The position numbers and the translations under genes are program-made. A DNA stretch of 64,000 nt. Source: an uncultured Lentisphaerales bacterium. GTDB taxonomy: Bacteria > Verrucomicrobiota > Lentisphaeria > JABSQK01. Positions 39,863-61,854 of the stretch are shown one piece after another. The stretch spans positions 20,922 to 84,921 of the forward strand of contig CAYLNH010000004.1 in assembly GCA_964384625.1 (NCBI GenBank), read 5' to 3'. Positions within the stretch are counted from its first letter, which is position 1. Every line of letters begins with the position of its first letter. Below the pieces are notes generated by a model. The model did no database searches, had not been told where the DNA came from, and worked only from the letters and a program-made list of their open reading frames with translations.

Positions 39863-40027
39863 CGGGTTTTGGCGAGCCCCCGTGAATGTTGATGCAGCCG
39901 ACAGACGTCCTGCGGACCGCCTCAGACGGTCTGCTTCCGAGCGTGGCCGTCCCGACCTCTTGGGAGTCGGGATCTCGTCCGCGCATCCCCGACTTCTGTT
40001 GAGAACATTGATGCTCGGCAAAACCCG
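39863..40027. repeat. structured intergenic element, copy 1 (dispersed repeat or candidate ncRNA)
   Basis: Closed by cgggttttggcgagc/gctcggcaaaacccg inverted repeat; core 39892-40011 homologous to 61117-61219. Confidence 0.8.
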
Positions 40028-40340
40028 TATCGAGCTTTCGTTGAGCGATCGCGTGCCGCCCGCCCTGAGACGGGAACAGCCCGGGGTTTTTTGGCTCGGT
40101 CACCGGCACCCGGGTGGTTGCCGCCCCGGTTTCCGCCGCCGCGGCCGGTCGGCTGCCCGCAGTGGCCGGGAACCCGAAGAGACCAGGTGTAAAACTGCAG
40201 GTGACGGAGCCGCACAGAACGCCGGGGCCGACCGCTTGAGAGTCAGGACGCCATATGGGAAAAACGGAACGAGACGGGGCGCGTCGTTGCGAGCCCCCGG
40301 CGTTCACGCTTCAGAATGAGAAATCTTACCTGCATCCGGG

Positions 40341-59658: not shown

Positions 59659-60954
59659 TCAGCGAGGCTTGATCACAAACAACCCGGTGGTGATGGTCAT
59701 GGCTTGACCCAGGGACATGCGCTTCTGCTCATGTCCTCGGCCCCACGAGTCCGTGTAAACGACTTCCTTGGTCTTGGCATTGTAGCCGATGATCAGCCGC
59801 ATATGACCTCCCGACGCCTGCGGCAAATTGCGTTCTTCGACCAATCCGAGAATCACACTCCAGGCCAGCGGCAGGCCGTCCTCGATGTTCTCACGAATGG
59901 CTTCCTCGAAATCGGAGACCACCGACGACCGTTTCATGCGCGCCGCCTGCAGCAGTTCAAGGTCCATGGCGGCGAATGTCCTGTTCAGTTGAATCGGCCC
60001 GCGCCGCGGCAGCTTGATCGCCGCCTTGTCCGCGCGGCGCGCCAGCCGGTTGTAGTCGCGGACAATGCGCCGGACATCGTCCACGTCGAGCATCGTCTCC
60101 GTCTTCACTGAAATCCGGAATTTGCCGCGGATGCGCTTCAGCGCTTCCAGCAGTTCCTGCGGGCTGGTTCCCAGTTTGCCGGTATTCGCGATCTGCGCGA
60201 TTTCATGCTGATCCACCCGCCGACCGAAGTACTGCAGGATGCGCGCCGTCGCGGCGCAGGCACAGTAGCCTTTGCGGCCCTGATCCACCATCGGCACGCC
60301 GCGGATGAGCATATCTTCCTGCCGGGTGGTCACCACCCGACCGCGCAGTTCGCGCTTGCCCACCGCGTCCTTCACAATGTCCAGATTGCTCAGGCCGCGA
60401 TCCTCATTAAACGGCAGCACGCTGAGCCGGACGTATTCCGAACGGTAGCGGCGACGGCCGTCGACTCGCACCTTGCCGTCCTTGTAGTCGAGCCGGAACA
60501 GTACGCCGTGTCGCACCCAGAGGAAGGAATCCTTGTCCGTCGCCCCGGTGCTCCGGCGGCTCTTCGGGTCCTCCCCGGTCAACTCCGTCAGAACGGCCGC
60601 CGCTTTCTCAACCAGCGCGTCGAACTCATCCTCCGGAAGCATCTCGCGATCGCCGCGATTGTAGAGGCTGAGGGCGACGCTGCTGAGTCTGCCATGTCGG
60701 AACCGGACCAGAACCTCCACCACCGGCAGTCCTTTGAAACGCATCCCTTCGCCGACCGCGCGCAAGGAGGTCTTGTTCTTTGAGGTCCAGGTGAAGCGGG
60801 CAGTCTTGCCGTGGTCCCGGGCGAAACTCAGTGCCGTACTGCGGAACAACTGCTGGTCGGTGCACAACTTCGCCAGATCCTCCCCGCTCCAGACCGCAGC
60901 GACAACAAAGAAAAGCCCGGCGGCGATGCCCCGGCATGCCCGCTGTACGTCCAT
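59659..60954 (-). CDS. C39-like cysteine peptidase family protein
   Basis: VPMVDQGRKGYCAC, GGHMRLIIGYN, YTDSWG; AAGGA RBS. Confidence 0.8.
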   Translation of the reverse strand: MDVQRACRGIAAGLFFVVAAVWSGEDLAKLCTDQQLFRSTALSFARDHGKTARFTWTSKNKTSLRAVGEGMRFKGLPVVEVLVRFRHGRLSSVALSLYNRGDREMLPEDEFDALVEKAAAVLTELTGEDPKSRRSTGATDKDSFLWVRHGVLFRLDYKDGKVRVDGRRRYRSEYVRLSVLPFNEDRGLSNLDIVKDAVGKRELRGRVVTTRQEDMLIRGVPMVDQGRKGYCACAATARILQYFGRRVDQHEIAQIANTGKLGTSPQELLEALKRIRGKFRISVKTETMLDVDDVRRIVRDYNRLARRADKAAIKLPRRGPIQLNRTFAAMDLELLQAARMKRSSVVSDFEEAIRENIEDGLPLAWSVILGLVEERNLPQASGGHMRLIIGYNAKTKEVVYTDSWGRGHEQKRMSLGQAMTITTGLFVIKPR

Positions 60955-61039: not shown

Positions 61040-61443
61040 GTAAGCCCTCGTCTGCTGCCCTCCTCAGCATCCCGTCCCAACTTTCAAGAGGTCGGAAACC
61101 TGCGCTACTTGGGATAATGCAACCGGCAGACGTCCTGCGGACCGTCTCAGACGGCCTGCCTCCGAGCGTGGCCGCGGTCGTCTCGACCGCGCATCCCCGA
61201 CTTGTGTCGGGAACATCGAGGATCTGTCACCTGCATTCAGTTCGCGCCGAACCCGTTCTCCGTTCTCCTGCCGTTCTGGTTGGCAGGTCAACCAGAGCGG
61301 CAGGAGAACGGAGGGGGGCTGCCGTTTGCTGCAGTTGACCGATCCTGAAACTCCGCACTGCAAGCTCCTACGCCGAGGCTTCGGCGCTCAAGAGGGTGCG
61401 CGATCTTTATGCCGAATGCAGAGGGCAGTGATCGAGGGCTTAC
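61040..61443. ncRNA. large nested structured element, copy 2 (candidate ncRNA or MITE)
   Basis: 23-nt terminal inverted repeats (19/23), 25-bp hairpin at 61258-61313, enclosing stem ~61220-61345, core shared with 39892-40011. Confidence 0.55.
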
Positions 61444-61563: not shown

Positions 61564-61854
61564 GTGGGTAAAGAGACTGCTCAGATTACAAGATGCTTTG
61601 TGGTCCCGAATGAATTGGGACTGCACGCGCGGGCGGCAACCCGCTTGACCCAGGTGGCCTCGCAGTTTGAGGCGAACGTCCACATCCGGCTCGCGGGCGA
61701 GGACAATCCTGCCGCCAACGCCAAGAGCGTGCTCGATCTGCTCACCCTCGGCGCCGCCAGAGGCAGCCGCCTGAATGTCATCATCTCCGGAGCTGACGCG
61801 GCAGCCGCGGACCAGGCCATTGCCGAGCTGTTCGAAAACAACCTGGGGGACTGA
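61564..61854 (+). CDS. ptsH: HPr phosphocarrier protein
   Basis: NELGLHARAA and NAKSVLDLLTLGA. Confidence 0.92.
   Translation: MGKETAQITRCFVVPNELGLHARAATRLTQVASQFEANVHIRLAGEDNPAANAKSVLDLLTLGAARGSRLNVIISGADAAAADQAIAELFENNLGD

Follow-up and report, generated by a model that had tools for sequence, protein, structure and literature searches.

Positions 61040 to 61443 of the DNA analyzed here (the window, a stretch of 64,000 nucleotides) hold 404 bp (G000:C4:81961-82364) that can base pair with themselves almost completely. Does this stretch encode a structured RNA, or is it a mobile element? A preliminary description, made from the sequence alone, had proposed either an undescribed large structured RNA or a modular non-autonomous mobile element. 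Comparison of copies across the genome (7.5 Mb, 466 contigs, 92.9% complete) bears out the second proposal: the outer element and the ~100-nt core within it belong to two multi-copy families, A and B, that have separate TIRs and duplicate different lengths of target (8 bp and 6 bp, respectively). The locus is very probably a composite MITE, in which an outer A element (most likely an IS66-family deletion derivative or mimic) carries a nested B element and the fold is not evidence of an RNA gene. The structured RNA proposal fared poorly, as both strands fold equally, copies lie in either orientation, there is no Rfam match, mismatches show no wobble asymmetry, and nothing similar was found outside this genome.

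Locus and fold of the element

The element lies in a 609-nt gap between two divergent genes. The minus-strand neighbor is a C39-like peptidase gene (Pfam Peptidase_C39_2) with a likely ATG at 60954, and the plus-strand neighbor is an HPr gene (PTS-HPr) starting at 61564, followed on its 3′ side by a NusG-like gene and then by a long open reading frame that continues up to the window end. A sigma-70-like promoter match, TTGTCG-17-TATATT, is located at 61020-60992 on the minus strand, directly outside the left end of the element and pointing toward the peptidase gene; it was left intact by the insertion. No promoter-like site or intrinsic terminator was found within 61040-61443, and the ORFs there are short (43 to 99 aa) and overlapping, on both strands, within a palindrome.

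Every arm, stem, core, and hairpin that had been placed within 61040-61443 is present at its position (Table 1). Of the 23 positions in the left arm, 19 match the reverse complement of the right arm. The sequence at 61075-61114 is a decayed form of the CCCGAC..GTCGGG hairpin of the A family, in which the tcccaa/ttggga pairing replaces the former pairing. The plus strand of the element folds at −214.5 kcal/mol, compared with −157.1 ± 6.2 for shuffled sequences (z = −9.33), and none of 100 shuffles folded as well. The minus strand folds at −218.0 kcal/mol (z = −9.77), which is equal to or slightly better than the plus strand. The suggested RNAfold comparison with shuffles therefore gave a strong fold on both strands. 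A plus-strand bias toward G-U-compatible mismatches, which had been taken as a sign of RNA-level structure, is unsupported for the whole element, given the equal or better fold of the minus strand. The almost complete pairing belongs to the DNA level and consists of inverted repeats nested in inverted repeats.

The very strong z-score would fit a large structured noncoding RNA with pairing kept at the RNA level, whose copies would be a dispersed RNA gene family or cis-regulatory leaders. We consider this reading quite improbable. Equal folding of both strands is the behavior of a DNA palindrome and not of a strand-specific RNA. No Rfam family reached its gathering score in the element: a search of the whole window with Rfam 15 at gathering scores returned only a tRNA elsewhere in the window. 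A permissive search gave 10 subthreshold matches, all to eukaryotic miRNA precursor models (20 to 38 bits, against gathering scores of 74 to 297), and these fall on both strands of the long hairpin. Further evidence on this reading comes from the copies and is given with them below.

Table 1 Features of the 404-bp element and related copies (window positions unless a contig is named)
Feature	Position	Strand	Basis
Very probable composite MITE, outer A with nested B	61040..61443	.	Longest of 41 two-ended A copies
Left TIR of A, GTAAGCCCTCGTCTGCTGCCCTC	61040..61062	+	247 such termini in genome, 6 in reversed-sequence control
Right TIR of A, reverse complement GTAAGCCCTCGATCACTGCCCTC	61421..61443	-	Terminus scan
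Left subterminal region of A, tcccaa/ttggga stem	61075..61114	.	Alignment of 16 A copies; fold
Left 6-bp target duplication of B, TGGGAT, degenerate	61110..61115	.	Sibling C47 has GAGGAT
Nested 102-bp MITE B (three-hairpin core), TIRs GATGYNNCCGACAGAAGTC / GACTTCTGTCGGGNACATC	61116..61217	+	35 two-ended copies
Right 6-bp target duplication of B, GAGGAT	61218..61223	.	Alignment, flank comparison
Central domain of A, closed by GGATCTGTCACC / GGTGACCGATCC	61220..61345	.	43 genome loci, 39 kept
Stem ggatctgtcacctgca / tgcagttgaccgatcc	61220-61235 / 61330-61345	.	Encloses hairpin 61258-61313
Long hairpin, 25-bp arms, 6-nt loop, one T:G pair	61258..61313	.	Arms covary across copies
cgcac..gtgcg stem holding cgccgaggcttcggcg (61371-61386)	61354-61400	.	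Sequence
~30-nt hairpin indel module, cgccgaggcttcggcg	61363..61392	.	Alignment; coverage drop at q326-352
Second B copy in window, 119-bp variant, different middle hairpin (GTCCCGACCTCTTGGGAGTCGGGATCTC)	39891..40009	+	B copy alignment
Copies of second MITE family	G000:C31:28165-28418; C2:103860-104114; C8:48140-48567; C368:3761-4188		BLAST of element; scan for paired termini

Two repeat families and their nesting

The genome-wide BLAST search proposed for finding copies was productive, as parts of the element match 221 places. Coverage along the 404-nt query (positions q1 to q404) has sharp breaks at q76/77 and q178-181 and weaker ones at q325/326 and q352/353. These divide the element into A (q1-76 plus q181-404), B (q77-178), and a ~30-nt hairpin, which some A copies contain but the closest siblings of the window copy (on contigs C23, C47, and C144) do not.

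Termini of A (GTAAGCCCTCG... TIRs, 23 nt) were located with a 22-nt consensus allowing up to 5 substitutions. The genome contains 247 of them, compared with 6 in a control scan of the reversed genome. At 129 of the 247 the element runs off the contig end within 400 nt, and 41 copies, 90 to 404 bp long, have both ends on one contig. The A family, with ~120 or more copies, is a lineage-restricted burst. Contig depth summed over the repeat modules reaches hundreds to thousands, compared with about 11 to 12 on the flanks, a figure that is not a copy number. In the alignment, A occurs as a form of ~295 bp, as shorter deletion derivatives of 102 to 193 bp (e.g., with a deletion between CGGGA repeats), and as composites. 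With 129 of its termini at contig ends in an assembly of 466 contigs, the family is among the main reasons why this genome assembly is fragmented.

Target duplications were examined by comparing, for n = 2 to 12, the n-base flank ahead of the left end with the one following the right end. Mean identity was 0.75 at n = 8 and 0.20 to 0.33 at every other length. Among the 41 two-ended copies, the 8-bp duplication is perfect in 16 and has one mismatch in 11 (27 of 41 with at most one). The other 14 have at least two mismatches, and 3 of these resemble a boundary offset of 1 to 2 nt. The GTAAG ends noted previously as IS66-like fit that family once these sibling copies, with their 8-bp duplications, are compared. 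The 404-bp element and its family are short (<~600 bp) and noncoding, have TIRs, and occur as many dispersed copies, as MITEs do. Duplications of fixed length are found in both families (8 bp for A and 6 bp for B); the window copy of A does not have one.

Two further observations concern single A termini. At window position ~2933 (G000:C4:23854) there is a lone A-type terminus that is degenerate, carries R-type subterminal sequence, and has no partner within 700 nt. The termini at G000:C44:5745 and C29:40677, on different contigs, have a common 8-nt flank, CTGCGAAT; they could represent a single locus present twice in the assembly, or different alleles of strain variants.

B is an independent 102-bp MITE with GATGC..CCGACAGAAGTC repeats and a 6-bp duplication. 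In 38 near-full copies aligned with their flanks, the left limit of similarity is GATGC... and the right limit is ...ACATC. Both ends are present in 35 copies, exactly 102 bp long in 28 of them, and the TIRs of ~19 nt are conserved. Flank identity was 0.73 at n = 6 versus 0.21 to 0.39 at other lengths, with 11 of the 35 duplications perfect. The core of the window element and the second B copy in the window are 78% identical over q78-180 by BLAST.

B occupies the same site in 5 of 16 aligned A copies. The remaining 11 lack it, and their empty site reads TACTTGCGGATCTGTC. B is flanked by TGGGAT/GAGGAT in the window copy and by GAGGAT on both sides in the sibling on C47. Comparison of the filled and empty sites shows that B inserted into an A element. 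The empty-site check proposed earlier thus succeeded for B. For A no empty site could be shown: there was no match in 40 related genomes and no element-skipping joint in the contigs of three DNA runs. Two sibling composites have the same architecture as the window copy. The first, C23:20910-21284 (375 bp), has the TSD AATGGCGC/AATGGCGC and is 85% identical to the window copy over q3-402; the second, C47:5335-5703 (369 bp), has the TSD GTCAACAT/GTCAATAT. Since each has an 8-bp duplication of its own, the composite moved as a unit. Very probably, the 102-bp B, a second and unrelated MITE, inserted into A, with the left subterminal region on one side of it and the central domain on the other, before the composite A lineage spread, and A plus B then transposed together. 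The other differences between copies reflect hairpin-sized indels and probably also recombination between copies. The locus is a clear case of a MITE-within-MITE insertion in which the composite afterwards transposed as a unit.

B-related sequences also occur in other settings. A degenerate A-like central domain (GGCTCGGTCACC...GGTGACGGAGCC) is found at about 40093-40218, ~85 nt downstream of the 119-bp B variant at 39891-40009, and together the two look like the remains of another composite. A second MITE family has GTAAGTACTCGACC / GTAAGTGCTCGACAAACC ends (GTAAGT-ended), 8-bp duplications, and a length of 254 to 255 bp; its 428-bp copies on C8 and C368 each hold a B element. Tandem arrays with a period of ~55 nt, at G000:C154:5640-5880 and also on C259, C360, C25, and C80, are built on a 17-nt hairpin, GCGGTCGAGACGACCGC, identical to the middle hairpin of B.

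The preliminary description was correct that no 8-bp duplication flanks the window copy: only 1 of 8 positions agrees between CGGTCAAC and ATTTGGGT on its two sides, although sibling copies do have a duplication. The window copy is mosaic, with a right end (q322-404) that shares 96% identity with the copy on C309 and a left part of 325 nt whose identity to siblings is at best 83 to 87%; the 30-nt module, missing from its closest siblings, is present. Probably, then, the window copy is a recombinant. Most likely, the duplication would have been lost through recombination between two A copies, with the intervening DNA deleted. In the excerpted text of PMC6778807, recombination between IS66 copies is reported to leave mismatched flanks.

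The missing duplication and the mosaic structure would also be expected if the copy were an assembly chimera, a contig joined through a repeat of more than 120 copies whose flanks are not truly adjacent, and short k-mer contigs of a source-like run cannot link both flanks. Several results make such a chimera very improbable. The composite architecture is real, being present on C23 and C47 with independent duplications, and the interior of the window copy is covered by exact contigs at 10 to 14x. Further, neither flanking 8-mer nor its reverse complement occurs at any other assembled flank of the 247 A termini, so that no orphaned flank is seen, which is evidence against a simple mis-join. Synteny around the peptidase gene was compared in family-level relatives; the homologue in G001 (35% identity) has different neighbors, with no HPr gene in the 4.2-kb locus, which does not bear on whether the junction in the window is native. 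Recombination between copies is the preferred account of the window copy.

A central hairpin with covarying arms

The central domain was compared at 43 genome loci, of which 4 were dropped as poorly aligned and 39 were analyzed. The hairpin arms are 95.4% complementary within a copy and 71% alike between copies. There are 29 distinct left arms, and for 30 of the 39 copies no arm matches better than the partner from within that copy. In the 31 copies that could be anchored, both arms have changed at 12 of 21 stem positions, with 62 compensated and 38 uncompensated cells. Most compensated states are common to 5 to 11 copies, and unpaired changes are mostly copy specific. The long hairpin is preserved as a structure and not as a sequence. 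Something acts on this structure, and a purely junk-DNA picture does not explain the covarying arms.

Such covariation would also speak for an RNA, as would the central domain being on average 2.7 kcal/mol more stable in the plus orientation (26 of 39 copies; Wilcoxon P = 0.014). The orientation bias, however, derives largely from one subfamily with inherited positions, and the copies are not independent. The hairpin mismatches comprise 19 G:T, 14 A:C, and 19 others in 958 pairs, with about 9 of the 19 G:T being one inherited position by reading of the alignment rows; there is no convincing strand asymmetry in them. In 14 of the 39 copies (with gc or at at the center) the hairpin is palindromic through its center, with no real loop, which favors a DNA-level process. 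B, analyzed in 28 copies, shows 0 compensated of 31 pairs, and the target duplications show that the copies spread by transposition.

Gene context bears on the same question. By crude gene calls, under which 86% of the genome is coding, 33 of the 41 A copies lie between genes. The copies are enriched upstream of genes, as leaders would be: 17 lie in divergent, 18 in tandem, and 1 in convergent contexts, with 5 at contig edges, against a baseline by intergenic length of 25% divergent, 54% tandem, and 21% convergent. In the tandem contexts, however, 6 A elements run with the gene direction and 5 against it. B is distributed in much the same manner (13 divergent, 15 tandem, and 2 convergent, with orientations in tandem contexts of 9 versus 6). 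Both families are common between divergent genes, and convergent gaps hold 1 of 36 A copies and 2 of 30 B copies, compared with about 21% of intergenic length. By these crude calls, the scarcity of A and B between convergent genes could reflect insertion preference or selection.

On the preferred reading of A as a mobile DNA element, the paired arms may have been kept because a new copy can arise only from one whose hairpin is intact. Compensated changes are sublineage wide and unpaired ones copy specific, a pattern consistent with selection for an intact hairpin among lineages as they replicate. Alternatively, template switching might resymmetrize the arms, as in template-switch correction of quasi-palindromes. 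Selection of the former kind has been argued for REPINs in the excerpts of PMC3116915. Whether by a need of an IS66-type transposase for a hairpin or cruciform, or by host use of a regulatory structure in promoter regions, the central palindrome of A may be functional, although we think this unlikely. If true, a hairpin needed by the transposase would be a structure-dependent step not described for the IS66 family, and a hairpin needed for mobilization would provide new information on IS66-family transposition, which is poorly understood. In any case, the A hairpins are a clean natural data set of compensated versus uncompensated changes in a mobile-element hairpin, and the family is a trap for structured-RNA scans based on fold energy.

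IS66-type ends and comparison with known repeats

The GTAAG(C) ends together with the 8-bp duplication are an IS66-family signature, and A most likely arose by deletion from an IS66-family insertion sequence, or else mimics such ends. An 8-bp target duplication is given for IS66 in the excerpts of PMC6778807. Partial texts on two members provide further ends: ISDge4 (ISBst12 group) ends in GTGAC/GTAAC, with a repeat of 8 bp (PMC12898284), and ISPsk01 has the IR GTAAGCGTCCGG... (PMC12888890). A has IRs beginning GTAA/GTAAGC and the 8-bp duplication; a cognate transposase with the same ends was not found in the fragmented assembly, which does not amount to proof of absence. No full-length element with A termini is assembled, and no transposase adjoins any A terminus. 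In a search for a parent among 8-bp-flanked pairs of termini up to 8 kb apart and unpaired termini away from contig ends, all interiors were of MITE type.

The IS66-type genes in the genome are a truncated DDE_Tnp_IS66 gene at the start of C111 (C111:2-1126) and a 41-residue fragment on C66; no IS66 TnpB was found in this 92.9% complete assembly of 466 contigs. The C111 gene has no adjoining GTAAGCCCTCG end except that of a separate 171-bp MITE with its own duplication, and the transposase fragment appears to have an end different from that of A. At this locus (L031, G000:C111:1-1954) the truncated transposase gene is preceded by a DUF6788 ORF, and upstream there is a perfect 20-bp hairpin containing GGTAAGCCC, plus an A+T-rich stretch. 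The locus abuts the 171-bp A-type MITE (TSD TTTGCCTC) and an 87-aa ORF that may resemble the C terminus of an RND efflux pump.

The element is restricted to this genome in all collections searched. There were 0 matches in 40 related genomes, which also speaks against an RNA gene family; pattern scans of 185,579 species genomes gave 0 matches each to the A terminus and the B core, and plasmid and phage collections gave no match to the element. A single 22-mer match in a metagenome lies inside a 354-aa ORF without repeat features and was taken as chance. An IS66 DDE match is present in only 3 of 14 other genomes of the order, and no A terminus was found at the IS66 loci of those 3 relatives.

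The GTAG motifs mentioned in the preliminary description might suggest a different origin, a REP/REPIN-type element mobilized by a RAYT (an IS200-like Y1 transposase). The genome has 9 Y1_Tnp matches. Four of these are strong, and each of the four is a single gene with GTAG-type REPs of its own on its flanks. Those REPs, however, are unrelated in sequence to any module of the element, and the termini of the element are long inverted repeats beginning GTAAG. Y1 single-strand transposition is not known to make target duplications, but A and B make duplications of 8 bp and 6 bp. A GTAG-head REP flanking a RAYT gene without a duplication is thus not what A and B present. Compensatory changes, which the central hairpin of A also shows, are reported for REPIN hairpins in the excerpts of PMC3116915. 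A RAYT origin of A and B is almost certainly wrong, and we ruled it out on the grounds that the four RAYT genes have their own, unrelated REPs. As an observation in its own right, the genome holds at least four separate REP/RAYT systems, with RAYT-like Y1 transposase genes at G000:C42:4751-5104, C28:35002-35340, C152:6488-6826, and C6:7253-7594, each flanked on both sides by its own multicopy REP with a GTAG head.

We read the 404-bp locus as an IS66-type MITE specific to this lineage, with a second MITE nested inside it; elements of this kind are known. It can be compared with three groups of repeats. Modular or mosaic repeats and nested MITEs (BOX, ERIC, Correia/NEMIS, and bcr1) are, like A plus B, intergenic and palindromic, with variable modules and hairpin-sized indels. 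BOX and Correia are counted among the modular bacterial repeats. ERIC, NEMIS, and bcr1 appear as bacterial repeats, and compensatory changes are reported for bcr1, in excerpts of PMC3116915 and PMC3184786. Unlike in these repeats, the modules of A plus B can be shown to be distinct transposons, each bounded by TIRs of its own and each duplicating a different length of target (8 bp for A and 6 bp for B). REPINs, with their RAYTs, resemble A in having a hairpin kept by compensatory changes, an extragenic location, and a pattern that suggests selection at the level of the replicating element (excerpts of PMC3116915); A and B differ from them in having target duplications and long TIRs.

The third group comprises MITEs derived from the IS66 family, including its single-ORF ISBst12 group. 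No description of an IS66-derived MITE was found in the literature covered, including PMC3189936 and PMC12888890, a result that is not proof of absence. With such elements A has in common the GTAAG(C) TIRs, the 8-bp duplication, small size, noncoding sequence, and multiple copies. Its copies with mismatched flanks are a further likeness, being expected after recombination between IS66 copies according to the excerpted PMC6778807. A differs in that no parent IS has matching ends, and its TIR past GTAAGC is private to this genome. Its copy number (about 120 or more) is far above that of any IS66-type gene in the genome, and A is set apart further by its long internal covarying palindrome.
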